Assembly (NCBI GenBank): GCA_945876945.1
Contig: CAMCQE010000001.1
Location: 18,566-82,565, forward strand
Source of the DNA: Klebsiella pneumoniae
Lineage (GTDB): Bacteria > Pseudomonadota > Gammaproteobacteria > Ga0077536
Length of the DNA stretch: 64,000 nt
Direction: 5' to 3'
Part shown: positions 30,950-40,896 of the stretch, one piece after another
Layout: each line of letters opens with the position of its first letter
How positions within the stretch are numbered: the stretch's first letter is position 1
Notes under the pieces: generated by a model
Seen by the model: only the letters and a program-made list of their open reading frames with translations
What the model was told of the DNA's origin: nothing
Databases searched by the model: none
Made by a program: the position numbers and the translations under genes

Positions 30950-31208
30950 GCTGAATTCTCACGTCGCCGATTGCGGCGAAAAAGCATTGTTGTAAGGAAG
31001 CACCGTGCCCTGCGGGGCCGGTCGCATTATAGCCATTTTGCAGCACCGCACTAGGCGAAGAAGTCGCAGCCAGCGGCACCTCTTGCCCAGTACCGCGGCA
31101 ATCGTTTCCAATGCCTAGCACCCCGCGCGCTGCCCGGGCTCCATGCAACCGTTACGGATTCCCATCGCGAGGCTCCCCTTGTCGCAAGCCACCGGCGCTA
31201 CCGCGCGC

Positions 31209-31988
31209 ATGATTCAGGACGAGCCCTACTACGAGGCTCTGGGCAACGAACGTGAAGTGTTCGCCGCAGCCTATCGCAATCAGCTGCCGCTGCTGCTCAA
31301 GGGTCCGACCGGCTGCGGCAAAACGCGCTTCGTCCACCACATGGCCTGGAAACTTCAGCGCCCGCTGATCACCGTGGCCTGCCACGACGACCTCACCGCC
31401 GCCGATTTGGTGGGTCGCTATCTGGTGAAAGGCGGCGAGACGCAGTGGGTAGACGGCCCACTCGCTCAGGCCGTGCGCATGGGCGCGATCTGTTATCTCG
31501 ATGAAGTGGTGGAAGCGCGCAAAGACACCACCGTGGTGATTCATCCCCTGTGCGACGACCGTCGCATCCTGCCCATCGACAAACTCGGTGAGGTGCTGGT
31601 GGTGCCGCCCGAGTTTTCGCTGGTGATCTCCTACAACCCCGGCTACCAGAGCGTGCTCAAGGATTTGAAGCAAAGCACGCGGCAGCGCTTTGTGGCGCTG
31701 GAGTTCGCCTATCCCGAGGCGGCGCTCGAACAGCGCATCGTTGAAAGCGAAAGCGGCGTGGCCCCGGCAATGGCCGCGCGGCTGGTGAAGTTTGGCGCCC
31801 ACACCCGCAATCTGAAGGGCGCGGGGCTGGAAGAGGGCGCAAGCACGCGGCTGCTGGTCAACGCCGGCAAACTGGTGCAGGCGGGCGTGGCGCCGGCGGT
31901 GGCCTGTGATACGGCCGTGGCCCATGCGCTGACCGACGATCCGGAGCTGCTGCAAACCATTCACGAACTCGCCAGCGCGGTGTTCTGA
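31209..31988 (+). CDS. cbbQ: CbbQ/NorQ/NirQ-family MoxR AAA+ ATPase (Rubisco-activase subunit type)
   Basis: [10 protein letters not shown]…[15 protein letters not shown]…[13 protein letters not shown] colinear with CbbQ/NorQ. Start at MIQDEPYY. Confidence 0.85.
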
Positions 31989-32014
31989 GCCAGGCCCACG
32001 CCGGCTCTTCCCTC

Positions 32015-34165
32015 ATGGCGGACGCACCGCGCCAGAATTTCTTCAACCTCATCCGGGTACAGAAGGATCTGGAGAAAATCGCCGGCGCGGCGCTCATCCG
32101 CATGCCCCGCATGCAGGAAGTGGTGGGCGAGATCGCCGAGCTTGAGCGCGAAGCGCAGGATTTCATCCTGCATTGGGCAGAAGTGATCGCGCTGTCGAAC
32201 ACCGAACTCACCGCGCATTTTCTGGGACAGGTGCCAGCGGCGTTTCGCGCGCTCGATCAGGCGGCGGTGGAAGACTGGATCATCAAGGCCATGGACGTCT
32301 TCGACAATCGCGGGCTGGGGTTTGCGATCGAAGTCTTCGACAAACTCGACCCCTGGATCGAAGCCCACGAGCGCAATCGCACCGCCTGCAAGCTCGAACA
32401 AATCGCCGGCTTCTTGCGCCATTTCGTCCGCGCCCTCGGCGGCCGCACGCTGAACATCACCAACGACCAACAGGCCTGGACGGATACCGAAAAAATCTTC
32501 CTGCCCACCGCGCTCAATGTGCTGGCCGATCGCGCCGCCAACGCACGCCTGATGAAAAGCACGGCGGTGTATTTGTGGGCGCAAAACCGCTACGGCACCT
32601 GGCGCTATCGGGCGCTGGAAGAAGCCATTCGCCAGCTGGATGCGGCAGTGACTTGGCCGGTGTATCAGTGCCTCGAAGGCGTGCGGCTGATGGCCGCGAT
32701 TGCGCGGGAGCTGCCCGGGCTCGCGCGCGAAATGGAAGCCGTGGCCTATGTGGATGACGCGCACGCCGCCAGCTGGGCCGCGTTCACCGCCGCCGCCGCC
32801 GCGCTCGCCGCGCCCGAGGCCAGCGCGCGCGACAGCCTCGCGCTGGTCGCCGATTTCAGTCAGGTGCCTTTGCCCGCTGCGCGCCGCTGGCAGGGCGAGA
32901 TGTTTCCGCAGAAAGTGCGCGAGGCCCTGTTCAAGCGCGTGCCGCGCGAGAAGGAAGCCCTGCAGCAGGCGCTGTCCGCGCTCCAGCCGGAACACGAGCA
33001 ACAGCCCACCGAGGACGGCAGCGAAGCGGCCGAAGGCACCCAGGCGGCGAACCGTTTTTCGATCGCGCAAAACGGGCAAGCCGGTGCGACCCAGCCCGAA
33101 TACGAACTCCGTTACGACGGGCAGGCGGTGCCGATGTCCGCCGAACTGCAGGACCTGCTCGATTCCATCATGCAGGACATGGGCGAGATGGCGGAGGACT
33201 ACCTTACGCCCGCCGGCGGCAGCGGTGCTTATCCGCTCGACGAATCGGGCGCGGGCGGCGAAGGCCATCTGAAAGATCTGCCGAGCCCGGCCGGCAAGCT
33301 CTGGCTATATCCGGAATGGGATTACGCCCGCGCCAGATTTCGCGACGCCTTCTGCGCGCTGACCGAGCAGGACGTGCCCGAAGGCGATCCGGGTTTTGCC
33401 GAGAAAACGCGCGTGAAATATCGCGGGCTCGCCAAATCCATCCAGCGCATTTTCGAAGCCATTCTCTCCGAAGCGCAGCGCCAGCGGCGGCAGGTGCACG
33501 GCGACGAACTCGATCTCGACGCGCTGGTAGAAGCCCACGTCGATCGCCTGCAGGGGCGGGAAATGTCCGACCGTCTGTACACCCACTTCCGCAAGGCCGG
33601 GCGCAATGTGGCGGTGATGTTCATGGTCGACATGAGCGGTTCCACCAAGGGCTGGATTAACGAGGCCGAGCGCGAATCGCTCATCCTGCTGTGCGAAGCC
33701 CTGCAGGTGCTCGGCGACAGCTACGCGATTTACGGCTTCTCCGGCCGCACCAACAAGCGCTGCGAGATTTATCGCGTGAAGACTTTCAACGAGCCCTACA
33801 GCGCCGGCGTCGAACGACGCATCTGCGGCATCGGCCCCAAGGCCTACACCCGCATGGGTGTCGCAGTACGCCATCTCGGCAAATTATTGAGCGATGTGCC
33901 GGCGCGCACCCGGCTCCTGATTACGCTGTCTGACGGCAAGCCCGAAGACTACGGCAGCTATCGGGGCCGCTACGGCATCGAAGACACGCGCCACGCGCTG
34001 CTCGAAATCAAGCGCAGCGGCATTCACCCGTTCTGCATCACCATCGACCGCGAAGCGCAGAGCTACCTGCCGCACATGTACGGCGCGTCGAATTTCACGG
34101 TGGTCGATGAGGTGGCCAAACTGCCCTGGAAGGTGGCGGATATCTATCGCAAGTTGACGACCTGA
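32015..34165 (+). CDS. cbbO: CbbO/NorD-family von Willebrand factor A protein
   Basis: C-terminal VWA domain with MIDAS (DMSGST). 716 aa fits CbbO better than NorD (~610 aa). Immediately downstream of cbbQ. Confidence 0.75.
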   Translation: MADAPRQNFFNLIRVQKDLEKIAGAALIRMPRMQEVVGEIAELEREAQDFILHWAEVIALSNTELTAHFLGQVPAAFRALDQAAVEDWIIKAMDVFDNRGLGFAIEVFDKLDPWIEAHERNRTACKLEQIAGFLRHFVRALGGRTLNITNDQQAWTDTEKIFLPTALNVLADRAANARLMKSTAVYLWAQNRYGTWRYRALEEAIRQLDAAVTWPVYQCLEGVRLMAAIARELPGLAREMEAVAYVDDAHAASWAAFTAAAAALAAPEASARDSLALVADFSQVPLPAARRWQGEMFPQKVREALFKRVPREKEALQQALSALQPEHEQQPTEDGSEAAEGTQAANRFSIAQNGQAGATQPEYELRYDGQAVPMSAELQDLLDSIMQDMGEMAEDYLTPAGGSGAYPLDESGAGGEGHLKDLPSPAGKLWLYPEWDYARARFRDAFCALTEQDVPEGDPGFAEKTRVKYRGLAKSIQRIFEAILSEAQRQRRQVHGDELDLDALVEAHVDRLQGREMSDRLYTHFRKAGRNVAVMFMVDMSGSTKGWINEAERESLILLCEALQVLGDSYAIYGFSGRTNKRCEIYRVKTFNEPYSAGVERRICGIGPKAYTRMGVAVRHLGKLLSDVPARTRLLITLSDGKPEDYGSYRGRYGIEDTRHALLEIKRSGIHPFCITIDREAQSYLPHMYGASNFTVVDEVAKLPWKVADIYRKLTT

Positions 34166-34244
34166 GCTCACCGCCCTGTTGCTGCCAAGCGAGCGGCTTT
34201 GTAGATTGAAGCCCGCCAACTCACCCCTGATTCGGAGCCCACGC

Positions 34245-34451
34245 ATGGAACTCGGCAACTACCTGCTCTCGATCCTGATCTCGCTGCTGACCGGCGTAGT
34301 CGGCTTTGTCATCGCTTACAAGCTGTTCGATTGGCTCACGCCAACGTTGAGCTTTGAAGAGCATCTGCGGAACGACAATCGGGCTGTCGCGATTTTTCTG
34401 GCCGGGCTGTTTATCGGGCTTGGGCTGTTGCTGGGAAGCGCGGTGAAATGA
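34245..34451 (+). CDS. Small two-TM membrane protein (DUF350-like)
   Basis: 68 aa, two hydrophobic helices. ATGA overlap with the downstream NlpC/P60 gene. Confidence 0.45.
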   Translation: MELGNYLLSILISLLTGVVGFVIAYKLFDWLTPTLSFEEHLRNDNRAVAIFLAGLFIGLGLLLGSAVK

Positions 34452-34939
34452 AGCGCCTCGCCATTGCGCTGTGGTGTCTGGCGCTGGCGCACAGTGCGAC
34501 GGGCGCGGACGAGGTGCTGCCGGCGAGCGGGTCGGCGGCCTTACCCCTGGAGCAGGCCATCGCCAAGAATCTGGGTCGCCCGTACGTGATGGGGTCGACC
34601 GGCAACAAGTCCTACGACTGCTCCGGTTTTGTCTGGCGCGTGATGACCGACGCCGGGGTTTTCATCAAACGGTCAACGGCGCGCAAATATTATTTCGCCA
34701 TGCCAAAAATTGAGGATGGCTCGGCGAACCAGTATGCGTTCGGCCAGCTAGTCTTTTTCGATGACCTCAAACACGTGGGCATCGTTGACAGCCACCACGG
34801 GTTTTTTCACGCCGAAACCGGCCACGGCACGCGCCGGAGCAAGTTTGATCCTTACTGGCGCGGCAAGGTGGTGGGCTTCCGCGCGATCCCGCAGGTGGCT
34901 GATTCAGCCACGCCAGCGAGCGGCTCTCAGCAACCTTGA
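34448..34939 (+). CDS. Secreted NlpC/P60 (C40) family peptidase
   Basis: Signal peptide. Catalytic Cys in YDCSGFV and His in HVGIVD context. Confidence 0.75.
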   Translation: MKRLAIALWCLALAHSATGADEVLPASGSAALPLEQAIAKNLGRPYVMGSTGNKSYDCSGFVWRVMTDAGVFIKRSTARKYYFAMPKIEDGSANQYAFGQLVFFDDLKHVGIVDSHHGFFHAETGHGTRRSKFDPYWRGKVVGFRAIPQVADSATPASGSQQP

Positions 34940-34986
34940 AGGTGCACGTCGCGGTATGCCGGCCGGGTCTTTTTGGCTACGATACC

Positions 34987-35063
34987 GTCCCGCTTCGCGC
35001 TCGTAGCTCAGCTGGATAGAGTACTGCCCTCCGAAGGCAGGGGTCGTGGGTTCGAATCCCGCC
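34987..35063 (+). tRNA. tRNA-Arg (anticodon CCG)
   Basis: Cloverleaf: acceptor GCGCUCG/CGAGCGC, D-arm AGCUGGAUAGAGU, anticodon stem CUGCC/GGCAG with loop CUCCGAA, T-arm GUGGG-UUCGAAU-CCCGC, discriminator G, encoded CCA. Confidence 0.85.
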
Positions 35064-35542
35064 GAGCGCGCCAACAATTTTTTTGAAATCGATATTCGAT
35101 AAATGCCCAGCAGGGCCGCCGACCGCTCGTACGAAACTGGTACGAAAACCTTGCCTCAGGATTCTCCCCCATTAGATCGGATTTGCCGGGTCGGTTCGCA
35201 GGCTTAGATCGAAAAGCATCCAGCCACCGGGAAGAGCCGCGAGACGTGTCCCTCATCGTGCGGTTTCGGCTTGCTGAAAACTGGCAGGTGTCTCGGCCGC
35301 CAGGCTACACAGGCGTCACCAGGGTAGTTTGGTCACAAGCATCACGATATTGGGACACCCTCCCCGTCCCGCCCCAAAAAATTTCTCTGGAAATCTGGTG
35401 TTCAGAATCTGAACTCGCCAAGTCGGCGTGTCAGACTGGCCACGGCCGGTCGAATAGCGAAGCCGTTTTCCGTCTGCGATTTCGCTTGCCGCTAATTCCT
35501 TTGCGCTCCAGGGTTGCCGCTCAGGCAAAAGGGATTTCAAAC

Positions 35543-35719
35543 ATGAAAAAAACGACGAAATCAGTAGCGGCTACGGCGCTGACTGTGATGGGAATGGGTG
35601 GGACATTGCTGGCACCGATTAATGCAGAAGCCGCGGTAGTTCAGTGGGATATTTCCAGTGGTGGTAACGCCAACGCTTACAAACCCGTGCAAGCAAGGCT
35701 AAAGGAGCCGCGGATATGA
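35543..35719 (+). CDS. Small secreted peptide (58 aa) with signal peptide
   Basis: MKKTTKSVAATALTVMGMGGTLLAPINAEA signal-like N-terminus. ATGA overlap with the next ORF. No family recognised. Confidence 0.35.
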   Translation: MKKTTKSVAATALTVMGMGGTLLAPINAEAAVVQWDISSGGNANAYKPVQARLKEPRI

Positions 35720-36345
35720 CCCTGACGCATTGGCAGAGACTTGCGGCATGCCTTTTTGCTTTCGCGATGCAGGCAGAAGCGTTTGCCTGGGATGAGGCGG
35801 TTGATGGTGACCTGTCCAGTCTCAACACGGCGCCCACGCCCATTGCCTTCACCACCGGCGTTAACGTGGTTAAAGGCACCATGGGCGGGGACGCGGGCGA
35901 CGGCATTCCCGTGGACCGTGACTTCTTCACCTTCACGCTTGCTCCCAATCAGACGGTCACGTCGATCAATGTGCGCGTGTTCGGACCCGGTGGCGCATCC
36001 TTCTACGCCATTGGCCCCGGTACGTCGATTAACCTCTCGAGCGCGGCAACCCACTTGTCGAACACCCTGATCTCGGGACCGGGTGAAATCCTGCCGACGC
36101 TGGCCGCTGGCCCCTACTTCGACGGCACCGGCTTGAGCAACCCGATTGGCCCAGGCACCTACACCGTGTGGCTCCAGGAACTCTCGAGTGTCGTCACCTA
36201 CGACTTTACGTACACCGTCGTCACGAGTACCAACGCTGTGGCGACGCGCAAGGTGCCGGCAATGCCCCTTGCGGCGTTGCTGGCCCTGGCCCTGGCGCTG
36301 GCCTGGGTCGGCGATACCGCCGGTCGCAGGAACGACCGGCGCTAG
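35716..36345 (+). CDS. Secreted beta-rich protein with C-terminal sorting-signal-like tail (VPLPA/PEP-CTERM-like)
   Basis: Signal peptide (AMQAEA). Gly/Thr-rich body. C-terminus KVPAMPLAALLALALALAWVGDTAGRRNDRR = motif + hydrophobic helix + Arg cluster. Confidence 0.55.
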   Translation: MTLTHWQRLAACLFAFAMQAEAFAWDEAVDGDLSSLNTAPTPIAFTTGVNVVKGTMGGDAGDGIPVDRDFFTFTLAPNQTVTSINVRVFGPGGASFYAIGPGTSINLSSAATHLSNTLISGPGEILPTLAAGPYFDGTGLSNPIGPGTYTVWLQELSSVVTYDFTYTVVTSTNAVATRKVPAMPLAALLALALALAWVGDTAGRRNDRR

Positions 36346-36991
36346 GCGCCACGGGTTTCCCGCCACGCCCGGGAAATCAGCTGCGCAACTGGACTGCAAC
36401 GAGACAGGCACCACGCGCGGGCGCTTGCGGCGAGACGCCGGGAGAGCGTAGACGCCGGCAACGGCCCCGCACCCGTTTACTGAACGCTCGCCGTTCAGAT
36501 GCACGAAAGACAGTTCGCGTTTTGACCTGCCCTCGTGTTGCGCAGGACGAAGACGCGCGCTCAAAAGGGCGATTGGTCTGGTGACCCGTTTTCTCCGAAT
36601 CTAAAACGAATAACCCACACCAATTAAGAAATGACAGACGTCCAGCTCGCTGAGGTTCAGGTTGTTTGTCGTGCGGATGGTAGTCATTCTGCTGCCCGCC
36701 AAATGCCCGATTTTATTTTGCGCTCTTGTCCAGCTGTAATTGGGTTCGCGATAGCTCATTAGGGTTGACGTCGCCCATCGTCAGATCAGGGCGCTCGTGA
36801 GTGCAGAAACACATCCGTTGCTTCGCGAAATTCTGAACTTCACCAAGGCCGCCCAAGCGGCATTGGACAAGGCAGCCGGAGCGCCCGAATCGCGCGCTTG
36901 ACGCCCCAAAATCTTTCCGCTGGCGCCGCAGCCTGCTCAAGGCTTACCATTTCTAAGAATCACACCGCCCAACCAACACAGGATCGCGCCC

Positions 36992-37642
36992 ATGAAGACT
37001 CGCATGCTCATGCTTACCACCTGCGGCGTTTGTTTGCTCGGCCTAAGCGCCCTCGCTCAAGCCGATGACGTCCTGCCGCCGACATCGCCGGCCGTTGAGG
37101 AAACCGCACCCGTGCCGCCGACCGCCGAACTGCCGGCCGACGAGACACCATCCCCGGTCGTCATCACCGACCCGGTGGCCGTTGAGCCAACGACCGCCGA
37201 ACTGCCGGCCGAGGTGGTAGAAGTACCGCTGGCCGACGAGACGCCATCCCCGGTCGTCATCACCGACCCGGTGGCCGTTGAGCCAAGGACCGCCGAACTG
37301 CCGGCCGAGGTGGTAGAAGTCACGATGACGCGGCCAGACATGCCGCAGCCGAACGAACGCACCCTCGACAAGGTCGACACCGACAATGACTTCATCGCCT
37401 ACAGCGCCGCGCCGGGCGTGGTTGGCAATGTGCCGGAAATCCCGACCAGCCTCGTGCCGGACGCGAGCATCGAAGCGGCCAGCGCCTCCCTTGATGCCGC
37501 AGTGGCAGATCAGGCGGCGGCGGCGAGCGAGATGCCCGATACCTTCGCGGTCCCCGCGACCGTGGAAGCCAAGGTCGACACCAACGACGCTACGCCGACC
37601 GGCGGTCCGATGATCCGCGACGGTCACCTCATCGCGCGCTAA
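36992..37642 (+). CDS. Secreted acidic Pro/Glu/Val-rich protein with internal 32-aa tandem repeat
   Basis: Signal peptide (…LSALAQA). Repeat ADETPSPVVITDPVAVEP(T/R)TAELPAEVVEV x2. No recognised domain. Confidence 0.55.
   Translation: MKTRMLMLTTCGVCLLGLSALAQADDVLPPTSPAVEETAPVPPTAELPADETPSPVVITDPVAVEPTTAELPAEVVEVPLADETPSPVVITDPVAVEPRTAELPAEVVEVTMTRPDMPQPNERTLDKVDTDNDFIAYSAAPGVVGNVPEIPTSLVPDASIEAASASLDAAVADQAAAASEMPDTFAVPATVEAKVDTNDATPTGGPMIRDGHLIAR
37136..37327 (+). repeat. 96-bp direct tandem repeat (2 copies, near-identical) inside CDS 36992..37642
   Basis: gccgacgagac(a/g)ccatccccggtcgtcatcaccgacccggtggccgttgagcca… repeated with 3-4 substitutions. Confidence 0.75.
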
Positions 37643-37667
37643 CGCACGCCCTGTCATTCGTTATTAC

Positions 37668-37689
37668 GCGCAGCAGCACCCTGCTGCGC
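37668..37689 (+). terminator. Stable hairpin between the repeat-protein gene and tpsB (possible terminator/attenuator)
   Basis: gcgcagcag-cacc-ctgctgcgc, perfect 9-bp stem, 16 nt upstream of the TTG start. No strong U-tract. Confidence 0.35.
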
Positions 37690-37703
37690 GGCCTTAATCT
37701 GTC

Positions 37704-39263
37704 TTGCCAACCTTCGCACGTCCCGGGCTTTGCCTGCTGCTTTCGCTCGGGCTCACCCTCAGCGCCCACGCAGAGGGTGTCCGCTTCTCGCGCATCACCG
37801 TTTCCGGTAATCGCGCGATAGCCTCACCAAGCATCGACAAGGTCACCGCCGATTATCTCAATCGCGAGCTTGGCGATGAGGACCTGCAGCGTCTCCGGCA
37901 AGCGCTGGACGCGCTCTACGCCGCACAAGGCTTTCGCAGCTCCCGCGCGCGGCTACCCGACCAGCGGCTGGACACAGGCGTTCTGCGCATCGAAATGATT
38001 GAAGCCAGCCTTGAGGAAATCATCCTCAGCGGCAACGCGCATCTGAATGCCGATTATCTGCGGGCCCGTGTCGGCCGGGGTCTTGATAAGCCGCTCAACG
38101 TCAATCGACTGAACGACAATCTGCGGCTCTTGCTCCGCGAACGCCTGGTCGATGACCTCAAGGCCGAGTTTCTGCCTGGCAGTGCCCGCGACCGCCAACG
38201 CTTGAAACTCAGCCTGACCGAAGGCCCGCAATACAGCGTGGGGATGCGCGTAGGGAACGATCGCTCGCCAAGCGTCGGCGGTATTCATGGGGTAGTGGAG
38301 GCCGGCGCGCGCAATCTGCTAGGGCGAGGCGATACGCTGGATCTCTCCAGCGGGCACGCCGACGGACTCGGCGACTGGGACCTCCGCTGGCGGCTACCGC
38401 TCAACGCCGGCGGCACCGAACTCTCCGCGCGTTACGCCCGTTACGATTCAACCCTGGTCGAAGAACAGTTTGTGGTGCTGGGCGCCGAGACGGAGTCCAA
38501 CGCCTTTGAGCTGGGCCTCAATCAGCCGCTGATCCGCAGCGCCAACCGCCAGATCGCGCTGAGCGCGCGCTTCAGCCACCGGGACAGCCAGAGCTATCTC
38601 CTCGGCAAACCCTATTCCTTCAGTGCCGAAGCGGACGACGGACGGGTAGATGTCGACGCGCTAAGACTTGGTGTGCAGTGGACCGAGGCACAGCCGGGCG
38701 ACGTGCTCGCGCTACGCGCTGGGGTGAGCGTAGGGATTGGCGGCACCGAGCACCCTGATGACATTCCGGATGCGCGATTCACCAGCGTTCAACTTCTGGG
38801 TCAGTGGCTGCATGTGTTTGGCCCCCGTGCCGGACAATTCTTCGCCCGCGCCGACCTGCAGCTCGCCAGCGAGCCCTTGGTCTCACTGGAACGTTACGCG
38901 CTGGGCGGTGTGGGAACGGTACGCGGCTATCGGCGCGCGCGGGTGGTGAGCGACAGCGGCTGGTCGGCGTCGCTGGAATATCGCCTGCCCCTGTGGCGCC
39001 TTGCCTTCCCGGGCACCGGGCCCGAGGACGGCCAAATTCTGCTGGTTGCCTTTCTCGACGCCGGGGAAGGTTGGAGCGACCGGCCAGGGGTCAAAACCTC
39101 TCCGACGCTGGCCGCGCTGGGGCCGGGGCTCCGCTATGACATTAATCCGCGCATTCGCGCCGAAATCTATTGGGGTGCCTTGCGCCGCCGGGTTCCTGAA
39201 ACCGAGCCCGATCTGCAGGACAGGGGCGTGCATTTTCAGGTCGCCGCGCAATTCGGGTTCTAG
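37704..39263 (+). CDS. ShlB/FhaC/HecB-family two-partner-secretion outer-membrane transporter (TpsB), apparent TTG start
   Basis: Signal peptide, POTRA-like N-terminal region, Omp85-type beta-barrel ending in aromatic F (…AAQFGF). Only the TTG at 37704 gives an intact signal peptide. Confidence 0.65.
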   Translation: MPTFARPGLCLLLSLGLTLSAHAEGVRFSRITVSGNRAIASPSIDKVTADYLNRELGDEDLQRLRQALDALYAAQGFRSSRARLPDQRLDTGVLRIEMIEASLEEIILSGNAHLNADYLRARVGRGLDKPLNVNRLNDNLRLLLRERLVDDLKAEFLPGSARDRQRLKLSLTEGPQYSVGMRVGNDRSPSVGGIHGVVEAGARNLLGRGDTLDLSSGHADGLGDWDLRWRLPLNAGGTELSARYARYDSTLVEEQFVVLGAETESNAFELGLNQPLIRSANRQIALSARFSHRDSQSYLLGKPYSFSAEADDGRVDVDALRLGVQWTEAQPGDVLALRAGVSVGIGGTEHPDDIPDARFTSVQLLGQWLHVFGPRAGQFFARADLQLASEPLVSLERYALGGVGTVRGYRRARVVSDSGWSASLEYRLPLWRLAFPGTGPEDGQILLVAFLDAGEGWSDRPGVKTSPTLAALGPGLRYDINPRIRAEIYWGALRRRVPETEPDLQDRGVHFQVAAQFGF

Positions 39264-39326
39264 GGCAGCGCTGCAAGATACCGTGCTCCCTGCGGCACGG
39301 GGAGGCGCCCTAAGGGGCATGGCGGC

Positions 39327-39881
39327 CTAGAGCACTTTGCTCATTTCTGCACAGGGCACGGTCGTGCCGCGCGCGGTGGGGACCGCAATCCTGCGGTCGA
39401 GCTGGTAACCGGCGGCGCGGTACAGCGGCTCGCCGGCCACAGTCGCCACTAAAGCCGCGCGCTTGAAGCCCGCAGTGCGGGCGGCATCCTCACACAGGGC
39501 GAGGATCCTGCGCCCGATACCCCGGCGGGCAAATTCCGGGTGGGTATACATGGCGCGAATGCGGGCAGACGCCGTTGCCGGATCAAGCAGGCTGGCGTCG
39601 CGCCCCGCGCTGTGGTCGCCGCCAAACAGCGTGGCCCGTGCGCTCCAGCCGCCGCAGCCAATCAGTCGCCCGTCGGGATGCGTCACCGCGAAATAGGTGC
39701 CGTCGTCGATAAGCCCGCTGTCCACCCCCATGATCTCGAACGAGGCTTCAAGCTGCGCCGCGTCCAGCACAGGCCCTAGCAGGCCGCGAATGGCGGCGCC
39801 CATCAAGGCTTCGAGCTCGGGAAGGTCCGCACGCGTTGCCAAGCGGTGAATCAAAGGCGCAGACATCGGCGCGATAGCCAT
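39327..39881 (-). CDS. GNAT-family N-acetyltransferase
   Basis: Acetyl-CoA binding motif A region (RRGIGRRIL) within a GNAT fold. Start may be the internal MSAPL. Confidence 0.7.
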   Translation of the reverse strand: MAIAPMSAPLIHRLATRADLPELEALMGAAIRGLLGPVLDAAQLEASFEIMGVDSGLIDDGTYFAVTHPDGRLIGCGGWSARATLFGGDHSAGRDASLLDPATASARIRAMYTHPEFARRGIGRRILALCEDAARTAGFKRAALVATVAGEPLYRAAGYQLDRRIAVPTARGTTVPCAEMSKVL

Positions 39882-40017
39882 GCATCAGCGTCCGACAAAC
39901 TTCATTGCGGCCCTAAGGCCGCTCTCACCGTGAGGTGAGCGGCAATCCATTGCTGGAAGCGGCCTGCAGGCCGCGAATGAGCCACCGGCCCGGTCATCGC
40001 CCCCGTGGGCCTCAAGC

Positions 40018-40380
40018 TCAGTCGGCATCCCACTGGCCATCGTTGTCGAGATCGCGATCGGTGCCGCCCTTGTTGGCGTCCCACTGGCCGTCGTTATCGG
40101 TATCCCGATCCGTACCGCCCTTGTCGAGATCCCACTGGCCATCGTTATCCAGATCCCGATCGGTGCCGCCTTTGTCGAGATCCCACTGGCCATCGTTGTC
40201 GAGGTCCCGATCGGTGCCGCCCTTGTCGAGATCCCACTGACCGTCGTTGTCGATATCGCGGTCCGTACCGCCGCGGTCGAGATCCCATTGACCGTCGTTA
40301 TCGGCGTCGCGGTCGGTGCCGTAGGCGTGGGCTGGGCCGGCCAGCAAGAGGGAAAGCAAAAACGCGAGCAGAAAGCGCAT
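40018..40380 (-). CDS. Secreted repeat peptide composed of 6-7 copies of a 16-aa DNDGQWD acidic (putative Ca-binding) repeat
   Basis: AGGAG RBS 6 nt upstream of ATG. Signal peptide MRFLLAFLLSLLLAGPAHA. Body GGTDRD(L/I/T)DNDGQWDLDK repeated. Other frames here are repeat-induced shadow ORFs. Confidence 0.7.
   Translation of the reverse strand: MRFLLAFLLSLLLAGPAHAYGTDRDADNDGQWDLDRGGTDRDIDNDGQWDLDKGGTDRDLDNDGQWDLDKGGTDRDLDNDGQWDLDKGGTDRDTDNDGQWDANKGGTDRDLDNDGQWDAD
40024..40330. repeat. 48-bp tandem repeat array (about 6.5 copies), coding
   Basis: cccactggcc(a/g)tcgtt(g/a)tc(g/c)a(g/t)atc(g/c)cgatc(g/c)gt(g/a)ccgcccttgt(c/t)ga(g/c)at unit visible by eye. No unique spacers. Confidence 0.8.
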
Positions 40381-40443
40381 AGGTCACTCCTTGACCGCAA
40401 AGGCACCGGCGGGCGGTAGGTCCGCCGGTGCGCTTACCGCGGG

Positions 40444-40896
40444 TCAGGCGGTAGGCGTGGAATGCCGATCGGCCACCATGCGCATCGCTACGCGCAGATG
40501 CGAGTACTTCCACTCGCCGTTCTGCTTCACGTAGTCGTCGTCGTAGCGCAGCGCGAACCACTTTTCCTCACCCGTTTCGGTGTAGGTCCAGGGACCCATG
40601 ATGTACCACACGCCGGTCGCGTGATTGCCGTTCACGGTGATGATCGGGTTCATCATATTGTGCTGAGAGAAGCTGAACATTTTCTGAAAATTCGCGAACA
40701 GGGCGCGGATTTCGGCGTGTCCTTTCGCCAGACCAAAGTCGGCGCTTTCCCAGATCCCGTCTTCGGCAAACACCGAACACACGCGATCAGGGTTGTGCAT
40801 GTCGTCGCAGATTTGGGCGTAACGCGCCTTCAGTTGCTTGATGGCTTCGATGTCTTCCAGGCGCGTGATGCGCGCTTCCAGATCGCTGGTGCTCAT
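40444..40896 (-). CDS. NTF2-like / SnoaL-like (DUF4440-type) protein
   Basis: ~150-aa alpha+beta cone fold signature (…WYIMGPWTYTETGEEKWF…). Start at MSTSDLE with GGGGAGA RBS. Confidence 0.55.
   Translation of the reverse strand: MSTSDLEARITRLEDIEAIKQLKARYAQICDDMHNPDRVCSVFAEDGIWESADFGLAKGHAEIRALFANFQKMFSFSQHNMMNPIITVNGNHATGVWYIMGPWTYTETGEEKWFALRYDDDYVKQNGEWKYSHLRVAMRMVADRHSTPTA

Follow-up and report, generated by a model that had tools for sequence, protein, structure and literature searches.

The defining event of two-partner (type Vb) secretion is the docking of a large TpsA protein, by its TPS domain, on the POTRA domains of its outer-membrane transporter TpsB, and folding of the exported chain into an extracellular beta-helix is thought to help drive export. 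The best-known representatives are FhaB/FhaC, CdiA/CdiB, and ShlA/ShlB. Here we describe a locus at positions 35064–39263 of a 64-kb stretch of contig CAMCQE010000001.1 (the whole of the DNA analysed, hereafter the window), where a TpsB of 519 amino acids (aa) is encoded directly downstream of a 216-aa acidic, proline- and valine-rich secreted protein, hereafter the partner. A survey of Omp85 and TpsB proteins presents TpsBs as dedicated to haemagglutinin-like partners (PMC4104836), and we found no description in open-access full text of a TpsB paired with a small non-TPS protein. An initial annotation of this DNA had read four genes behind tRNA-Arg(CCG), encoding 58-aa, 209-aa, 216-aa, and 519-aa products, as one secretion islet. 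The explanation of the whole locus that we favour, with slightly better than even confidence, is that the partner and TpsB form a type Vb system of a non-canonical kind, which exports the partner or displays it, while the DNA inserted next to the tRNA is a separate unit. Statements on adjacency and absence in the source genome cover the window, and all relatives used for comparison (loci designated L001 and so on) are metagenome-assembled genomes and metagenome contigs of uncultured Gammaproteobacteria or Pseudomonadota.

The TpsB transporter and its acidic partner

The 519-aa protein is an intact, complete TpsB. It matched the Pfam models ShlB (PF03865; 92.5 bits, cut-off 22.7) and POTRA_2 (PF08479; 62.1 bits, cut-off 24) and also Omp85, and its AlphaFold2 (AF2) model, computed from a 78-sequence alignment, reached a predicted local distance difference test score (pLDDT) of 92.8 and a predicted template modelling score of 0.84. 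The model comprises two POTRA modules of beta-alpha-alpha-beta-beta topology (approximately aa 26–109 and 110–175) and a 16-strand barrel (aa 177–519). Structures of CdiB from Escherichia coli (6wim, TM-score 0.75), CdiB from Acinetobacter (6wil), and FhaC led the Foldseek ranking, with BamA and TamA lower. In the family alignment the VRGY and FxDxG motifs and 50 other columns are invariant, and full-length homologues extend from 98% to approximately 30% identity. The ratio of nonsynonymous to synonymous substitution rates (dN/dS) is 0.15–0.23, including the comparison with a species at a dS of 1.26. The TTG codon is the only start of the 519-aa open reading frame (ORF) that retains the signal peptide and is common to four strains, with GTG at this place in L001. 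The initial annotation had named this protein a ShlB/FhaC-type TpsB with a TTG start, and the model matches, the predicted barrel, and the choice of start codon all bear this out.

One feature sets the protein apart from its best-known relatives. The N-terminal H1 plug helix and the linker of about 30 residues are absent because POTRA1 starts approximately six residues after the predicted signal-peptidase site, and the AF2 model contains no helix in this region besides the signal peptide. Most TpsBs are predicted to have an H1-like helix, and FhaC depends on its linker for activity (PMC5422565).

As the initial annotation had stated, there is no TpsA nearby. The largest ORF of the window is GlnE, tblastn of the window with the nearest canonical TpsA (from L014) returned chance matches only, and the Pfam search found no TPS domain in the proteins neighbouring TpsB. 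Neither is a TpsA present in approximately 20 related loci of the lineage.

What stands immediately upstream of tpsB is the partner gene. The secreted acidic protein with a 96-bp tandem repeat was correctly recognised in the initial annotation: it has an isoelectric point of 4.05, and its 216 residues, 192 of them in the mature form, include 29 Pro and 36 Asp or Glu. Among strains that are 98% identical in DNA its length varies with the number of repeats (184 and 185 aa with one copy, 208 aa, and 216 aa), and repeat number also differs widely across the partner family. A profile search for this family recovered 49 protein clusters of 180–290 aa, whose common features are a signal peptide, a region rich in Asp, Glu, Pro, Val, and Gly with variable tandem repeats, a SAELSGAIGVAEQLGAAD-like segment, and a C-terminal I-R-D/N-G-H-L motif. 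Most members additionally contain a CxxC motif, which is absent from the window clade.

The AF2 model of the partner (33 sequences, pLDDT 50) predicts disorder apart from a helix at residues 158–179 and a C-terminal hairpin, and contains no beta-helix. Residues S164, A165, A170, Q174, and A177 of the helix are invariant across 33 members. The hairpin (residues 207–214), with predicted strands at 207–209 and 212–214, has the highest pLDDT of the protein. An I-R-D/N-G-H-L-type C-terminus was present in every partner found. The L001 homologue is only 36% identical to the window protein, yet its C-terminal end matches (GPIIHDGHLIAR versus GPMIRDGHLIAR), and variants of the motif occur in L031 (AIRNGHLAAP) and L030 (RISGGHLTVSSPQ, with RISGGHL). 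The dN/dS of the partner is 0.27–0.52, which indicates purifying selection at a weaker constraint than in TpsB. Constant ends and a constant helix around a repeat-variable middle are a pattern typical of exposed, disordered regions.

The partner shares with TpsA proteins a signal peptide and a co-oriented position next to tpsB, and has neither a TPS domain nor a large right-handed beta-helix. The window protein and 33 family members had no match in Pfam, NCBIfam, or among PDB sequences, and hence none to the TPS-domain models PF05860 and TIGR01901. A truncated TpsA was considered as an origin of the partner and rejected, as BLAST and hhalign against the TpsAs of related operons detected no similarity (hhalign probability 0.2%). 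The GHL motif is likewise absent from the C-termini of these TpsAs.

Conservation of the pair extends well beyond close strains. Strains 91–98% identical to the window retain the partner and TpsB genes while lacking the tRNA-adjacent insertion or carrying other DNA in its place, and in L001, with a TpsB of only 66% identity, the pair likewise stands behind this tRNA-Arg. A motif scan of the retrieved loci identified ORFs ending in [IV]-I-R-D/N-G-H-L directly upstream of TpsB in a second clade (clade B; L009, L011, L012; 45–48% identity). A metagenome scan with the clade B partner alignment yielded four loci, three of which were too short to reach the downstream gene. Wherever a partner-bearing locus extends far enough beyond the partner gene, a TpsB of this lineage follows 50–280 nt downstream on the same strand. 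The pairing was thus seen in three TpsB clades down to 40% identity, including L031 and the next outgroup, L030 (40% TpsB identity), and both genes of the pair are under purifying selection.

The neighbour-joining tree of the TpsBs has the topology ((clade A, window clade), clade B). Clade A transporters (L002, L004–L008) have no adjacent partner and no TpsA; because this partner-less clade nests among partnered clades, the pairing is ancestral, with adjacency later lost in clade A. More distant TpsBs (L013, L014, L032, L033; 33–36% identity) have a canonical TpsA of 1,183–1,213 aa (TPS domain, 135 bits) upstream of tpsB, so the small partner occupies the slot of tpsA. Judged by sequence comparison, the partner and TpsB genes belong to the chromosomal backbone as a conserved module of two, and we regard it as highly probable that the two genes act together.

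In the window the two genes are separated by 61 nt, and this gap contains a hairpin with a centroid fold of −20 kcal/mol (z = −2.4), whose end lies 13 nt ahead of the TTG. A 9-bp stem 16 nt before the start codon had been described initially; the measured stem has 10 bp. The hairpin is kept in L003, L019, and L016, and L001 has a different hairpin at that place. It has no T-tract and is not terminator-like. The scan for promoters and terminators returned nothing, and there is no sigma-70 consensus in the conserved region directly upstream of the partner gene (36891–36991).

The genomic surroundings differ between the clades. Clade A paralogues (51–54% identity; for example L002 6875–10077) stand alone between a gene for an APH-type kinase, or a luciferase-like gene, and a gene for an EVE-domain protein. 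Clade B (L009–L012, L020–L025; for example L020 5977–11603) has a fixed cluster of an AraC/GyrI-like regulator, partner, and TpsB, accompanied by convergent genes for a secreted protein of 310–324 aa without a Pfam match, an anti-sigma-like protein of about 200 aa, and an extracytoplasmic function (ECF) sigma factor. This cluster may indicate envelope-stress or surface-signalling control; the cluster as such is absent from the window locus.

Variable DNA beside tRNA-Arg(CCG)

To delimit the strain-variable DNA, contigs encoding near-identical proteins were retrieved and aligned to the window by blastn. In L016 (91–94% identity) and L003 (98.5%) homology extends to position 35075, which is 2 nt past the tRNA, and resumes at 36891, with 72 bp in place of the 1,815 bp of the window; it also restarts at 36891 in L017. 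Because homology to close strains stops and restarts at these positions, the inserted variable DNA is 35076–36890 only. Other strains carry other alleles. L019 (97% identity) has different DNA at this spot (L019 1–2600), which encodes a 240-aa protein with a VPLPA/PEP-CTERM tail and a 226-aa protein that combines a weak Lcl_C domain with a PEP-CTERM tail, both tails scoring above PEP-CTERM or VPLPA-CTERM cut-offs. On its minus strand there is also an 83-aa ORF with sub-threshold resemblance to the C-terminal end of a tyrosine recombinase (13 bits, cut-off 27). L034 shares window positions 35318–37056 at 99% identity and encodes, upstream of the 58-aa and 209-aa genes (L034 1–1740), the C-terminal fragment of a protein resembling VPLPA-CTERM proteins, together with a BrnT/BrnA (CopG) toxin-antitoxin pair. 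L036 does not differ from the window. In L001, which is more distant, 214 nt separate the tRNA from the homologue of the acidic protein, and TpsB comes next. By this comparison, at least four alleles exist at the tRNA-adjacent spot.

The 3' end of the tRNA is indeed a variable insertion point, with presence and absence of the islet among close strains, as the initial annotation had proposed. No integrase ORF is present at the insertion, also in agreement with that annotation. A search of the 64 kb for another copy of the tRNA 3' end, tolerating up to three mismatches, was negative, and there is hence no flanking direct repeat. Of the hallmarks of tRNA islands, the locus therefore shows 3'-end insertion with presence/absence polymorphism, and lacks an integrase and flanking repeats. 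The spacer between the tRNA and the 58-aa ORF (35074–35542, 469 bp) has a G+C content of 55%, compared with 64.5% across the window, and contains the palindrome TTCAGAATCTGAA, both as first described. The low-GC and strain-variable DNA, however, spans 35076–36890 and not the whole of 35064–39263, and only the 58-aa and 209-aa genes lie in it. On the strain alignments, the supposed four-gene islet is thus two unrelated units, namely the insertion and the backbone pair of acidic protein and TpsB. The most fitting description of 35076–36890 is that of a single allele at a hypervariable spot without an integrase, where varied genes for PEP-CTERM-type surface proteins and sometimes a toxin-antitoxin system are found. 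There is nothing unusual about a small hypervariable islet of this sort that carries a gene of the PEP-CTERM family.

Of the two ORFs in the window allele, the 209-aa one has relatives in abundance. Its product belongs to a family with 743 representative homologues, mostly of about 200 aa with a shared layout: a signal peptide, a beta-rich domain beginning with W/Y-x-E-x-(V/I)-x-G-D-L-S, a VPEP motif, a transmembrane helix, and an Arg cluster. PEP-CTERM family models were matched by 36 of 61 homologues, with the consensus tail VPEP...RRRR. The tail of the window protein (KVPAMP-LAALLALALALAWVG-DTAGRRNDRR) had no match to PEP-CTERM or VPLPA-CTERM models and scored under every curated CTERM cut-off, coming closest to IPTL-CTERM (18.9 bits for the tail alone and 13.8 for the whole protein, cut-off 20.5). 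The resemblance to VPLPA-CTERM and PEP-CTERM sorting signals suggested initially thus stands for the family but not for this tail itself. Because the homologues carry PEP-CTERM tails while its own scores below the cut-offs, the protein is a PEP-CTERM-family member with a degenerate tail. PEP-CTERM proteins are sorted by exosortases, not by TpsBs. On family membership, the 209-aa protein is unrelated to TpsB and most likely handled by an exosortase encoded elsewhere; no exosortase was found among the polytopic proteins of the window, which are TgpA, DsbD, an LPG-synthase-like protein, and an ABC transporter.

The 58-aa ORF, which overlaps the 209-aa ORF by ATGA, does have the signal-peptide-like N-terminus first noted. 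With a G+C content at third codon positions (GC3) of 0.51, compared with 0.73–0.80 for real genes nearby, it is of doubtful coding status and may be what remains of a gene. It weakly resembles the signal peptide of the 226-aa PEP-CTERM protein of L019 and nothing else (43% identity across 30 aa; E = 0.024, from a very small search).

Further observations concern the edges of the variable region and its surroundings. At its right edge, a 75-aa minus-strand ORF (36713–36940) is common to the window and L019 (3000–3227) and holds a '...THERP...G...P' string reminiscent of the C-termini of DDE transposases. An origin as an insertion sequence remnant is not supported: the ORF has no Pfam match and, as its sole tblastn match, an IS5 transposase at E = 0.5. 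The neighbourhood is variable on the other side of TpsB too, since in L001 (9658–11347) an insertion of approximately 1.8 kb with ORFs of low GC3 (207 aa and 197 aa) separates TpsB from a GNAT gene. The tRNA-Arg(CCG) itself is kept at the equivalent relative position in L001 and L016, and an Rfam scan of 34000–40500 found nothing besides it. Upstream of the tRNA, genes for a DUF350 membrane protein and an NlpC/P60 peptidase (34179–34939) follow a NorD-like gene in the window and L016; they are missing from L001, where the NorD-like gene directly precedes the tRNA. Further upstream (31143–34165) lie genes for a CbbQ/NorQ-type AAA+ ATPase and, after it, for a 716-aa protein without a Pfam match, taken to be NorD/VWA-like; this gene pair is kept alongside a di-haem cytochrome c gene in L001 and L016. 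Downstream of TpsB, the minus strand encodes a 120-aa secreted protein (40018–40380) with approximately 5.8 tandem 51-bp (17-aa) repeats GGTDRDxDNDGQWDxDK. These Asp-rich repeats are calcium-binding-like in appearance, and the protein has no Pfam or NCBIfam match. Its gene is kept beside GNAT and SnoaL genes in L001, L003, and L019.

Table 1. Positions in the window of the tRNA gene, the strain-specific insertion, the partner-TpsB pair, and their sequence elements
Feature	Position	Strand	Remarks
tRNA-Arg(CCG)	34997–35073	+	ARAGORN; Rfam tRNA 65.4 bits; 3' end is left edge of variable region
Strain-specific insertion, 1,815 bp	35076–36890		G+C content 58.6%; blastn against close strains
58-aa ORF	35543–35719	+	Signal-peptide-like N-terminus; no Pfam or NCBIfam match
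209-aa secreted protein, PEP-CTERM protein family	35716–36345	+	GC3 0.78; strong AAGGAG Shine-Dalgarno sequence
Conserved 5' region of partner gene, presumed promoter and ribosome-binding site	36891–36991	+	blastn homology with all related strains restarts here
216-aa acidic Pro/Val-rich secreted protein (TpsB partner), predicted mostly disordered	36992–37642	+	
Partner signal peptide	36992–37063	+	MKTRMLMLTTCGVCLLGLSALAQA/DD
Two 96-bp (32-aa) tandem repeat copies in partner	37129–37320	+	Repeat search and Tandem Repeats Finder; 96% identical
Predicted amphipathic helix of partner (ASIEAASASLDAAVADQAAAAS)	37463–37528	+	AF2 helix, residues 158–179; SA..A..EQ..A block
Partner C-terminal motif MIRDGHLIAR (family I-R-D/N-G-H-L), predicted beta-hairpin	37610–37639	+	I208, R209, G211, H212, L213 invariant
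Intercistronic hairpin	37667–37690	+	10-bp stem 37667–37676/37681–37690, 4-nt loop, no T-tract
TpsB-type (ShlB/FhaC/CdiB-like) outer-membrane transporter, 519 aa	37704–39263	+	TTG start, no Shine-Dalgarno sequence
TpsB signal peptide	37704–37772	+	Predicted cleavage AHA/EG
TpsB L6-loop VRGY	38919–38930	+	aa 406–409, invariant in family
TpsB FLDAG (F/GxDxG inner-wall motif)	39051–39065	+	aa 450–454, invariant in family

Proposed roles of the pair

Whether the partner is the exported or displayed substrate of TpsB is, in our estimate, an even call. The initial annotation had offered the small upstream proteins together as non-canonical substrates; this is plausible for the 216-aa acidic protein, whose adjacency is conserved, and does not hold for the 58-aa and 209-aa products, which are absent where TpsB is kept. 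A more specific and more tentative proposal, to which we give rather less than even weight, is that the pair represents an unrecognised branch of type Vb in which a TpsB without H1 and linker recognises a short C-terminal beta-hairpin with the I-R-D/N-G-H-L motif on a polyanionic disordered protein of about 200 residues and exports or displays it. In such a system, Sec would export both proteins to the periplasm, as their signal peptides suggest. The C-terminal hairpin, which the AF2 model leads us to propose as the recognition element, would dock by beta-augmentation, possibly together with the helix, either on the POTRA domains or at the seam of the barrel. TpsB would then thread the unfolded acidic chain through its pore, and the chain would be released or remain tethered as a surface-exposed polyanionic brush. 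Expression may be skewed towards more substrate than transporter because the partner gene comes first, a hairpin lies between the cistrons, and the TTG start has no Shine-Dalgarno sequence.

Several points weigh against export of the partner by TpsB. To our knowledge, type Vb offers no precedent for a secretion signal at the C-terminus; its signal is the N-terminal TPS domain. The transporter can also persist without a partner in cis, as in clade A (L002, L004–L008) and L010, and three of the clade A genomes additionally hold a partnered clade B copy. Finally, FhaC needs for its activity the linker that the window TpsB does not have (PMC5422565).

A different role for the partner would be that of a periplasmic accessory or regulator of TpsB (a plug or linker acting in trans, a periplasm-spanning tether, or a chaperone), with the true substrate, a TpsA or another protein, encoded elsewhere. 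A conserved amphipathic helix joined to an extended Pro-rich chain would suit a protein that stands in for the missing H1 and linker, partner-less paralogues occur in genomes that also hold a partnered copy, and the ECF sigma factor, anti-sigma factor, and secreted 310-aa protein beside the clade B pair hint at envelope signalling. Against this, the partner sits in the tpsA slot of related canonical operons, its fast change in repeat number and its weak constraint (dN/dS up to 0.5) are more in keeping with an exposed product than with a fitted regulatory subunit, and no TpsA was found in the window or in the flanks of the approximately 20 related loci. We consider an accessory role unlikely, albeit deserving of serious attention.

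Less probable still, and in our view quite improbable, is a shift of the TpsB-like protein to envelope assembly of the Omp85/BamA/TamA kind with the acidic protein as a periplasmic co-factor. BamA and TamA equally have no H1 plug and their structures are strong secondary Foldseek matches, and the clade A copies stand alone among housekeeping-type genes at a fixed chromosomal position. The best matches are nevertheless TpsB-specific (the ShlB and POTRA_2 models, with CdiB and FhaC outranking BamA and TamA), the protein has two POTRA domains like TpsBs, and its nearest outgroups are bona fide TpsA/TpsB operons.

Two further explanations are contradicted by the comparative data. That the 58-aa and 209-aa proteins are the cargo of TpsB, for which their proximity, common strand, and signal peptides might speak, is hardly credible, because both genes are missing from strains and species that retain the partner-TpsB pair and the 209-aa protein belongs to a family of 743 representatives with exosortase-type tails; moreover, no other TpsB locus examined encodes a homologue of the 209-aa protein, and the GC3 of the 58-aa ORF is non-coding-like. 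Equally implausible is the initial suggestion of a decaying remnant left after loss of TpsA: the window without a TpsA, the weak TTG start without a Shine-Dalgarno sequence, and the missing H1 and linker would agree with decay, but homologues retain full-length ORFs and the invariant motifs and columns, the predicted fold is confident, purifying selection on TpsB persists even at a dS of 1.26, and the TTG start is kept in four strains.

If the partner is indeed exported by TpsB, stable pairing with a small acidic disordered protein that has no TPS domain and nothing to fold would challenge the picture of type Vb export as dependent on TPS docking and driven by folding. TpsB transporters would then handle small non-folding substrates via a different targeting signal, which would widen the substrate range of Omp85-family transporters, and the pair offers a small, tractable two-gene system for defining minimal TpsB requirements. 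In metagenomes, 'orphan' TpsB calls should be checked for small unannotated neighbours, and strain comparison should set the limits of an apparent tRNA 'island' before its genes are grouped by function.

Comparison with known secretion and sorting systems

With the canonical type Vb systems the window TpsB shares its family models, two POTRA_2-type domains, the 16-strand barrel, and the VRGY and FxDxG motifs, and the locus shares the order of partner then transporter, with Sec signal peptides on both proteins. It differs from them in the absence of the H1 plug helix and linker and, above all, in the partner, which has about 200 aa rather than more than 700, has neither TPS domain nor beta-helix, is predicted to be disordered, and carries its conserved element at the C-terminus.

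The closest canonical TpsBs (33–36% identity) are those of L013, L014, L032, and L033, where the gene upstream of tpsB has the same position as the partner gene. These operons are embedded with genes for CHAT-TPR proteins, DUF928 proteins, and CHASE2-adenylate/guanylate cyclases, a combination with TpsA/TpsB for which we found no description in the open-access literature. In contrast to them, neither a TpsA of 1,183–1,213 aa nor these neighbours are present in the window or the partner-bearing loci.

For the inserted DNA, the relevant comparison is with PEP-CTERM/exosortase sorting. In the 209-aa protein the tail follows the three-part plan of the family (VPEP, transmembrane helix, and Arg cluster), and alternative alleles of the islet encode proteins above the PEP-CTERM or VPLPA-CTERM cut-offs. 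The window protein differs in having VPAMP as its motif and a tail under all curated cut-offs, with no exosortase in the 64 kb.

Slam (type XI) is an outer-membrane barrel that exports small substrates encoded next to it, such as hemophilin and surface lipoproteins. The concept of a small, adjacently encoded protein that is recognised by something other than a TPS domain resembles the arrangement proposed here. Slam, however, is a DUF560 14-strand barrel with TPR repeats and not an Omp85/TpsB protein, and its substrates are folded beta-barrel proteins rather than acidic disordered chains. Type Va autotransporters would be alike in another respect: if the partner hairpin engages the barrel, export would proceed C-terminus first, and the chain might stay tethered like a passenger. 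Unlike in type Va, the barrel and the 'passenger' are here separate polypeptides, and the barrel is of the 16-strand Omp85 type with POTRA domains.

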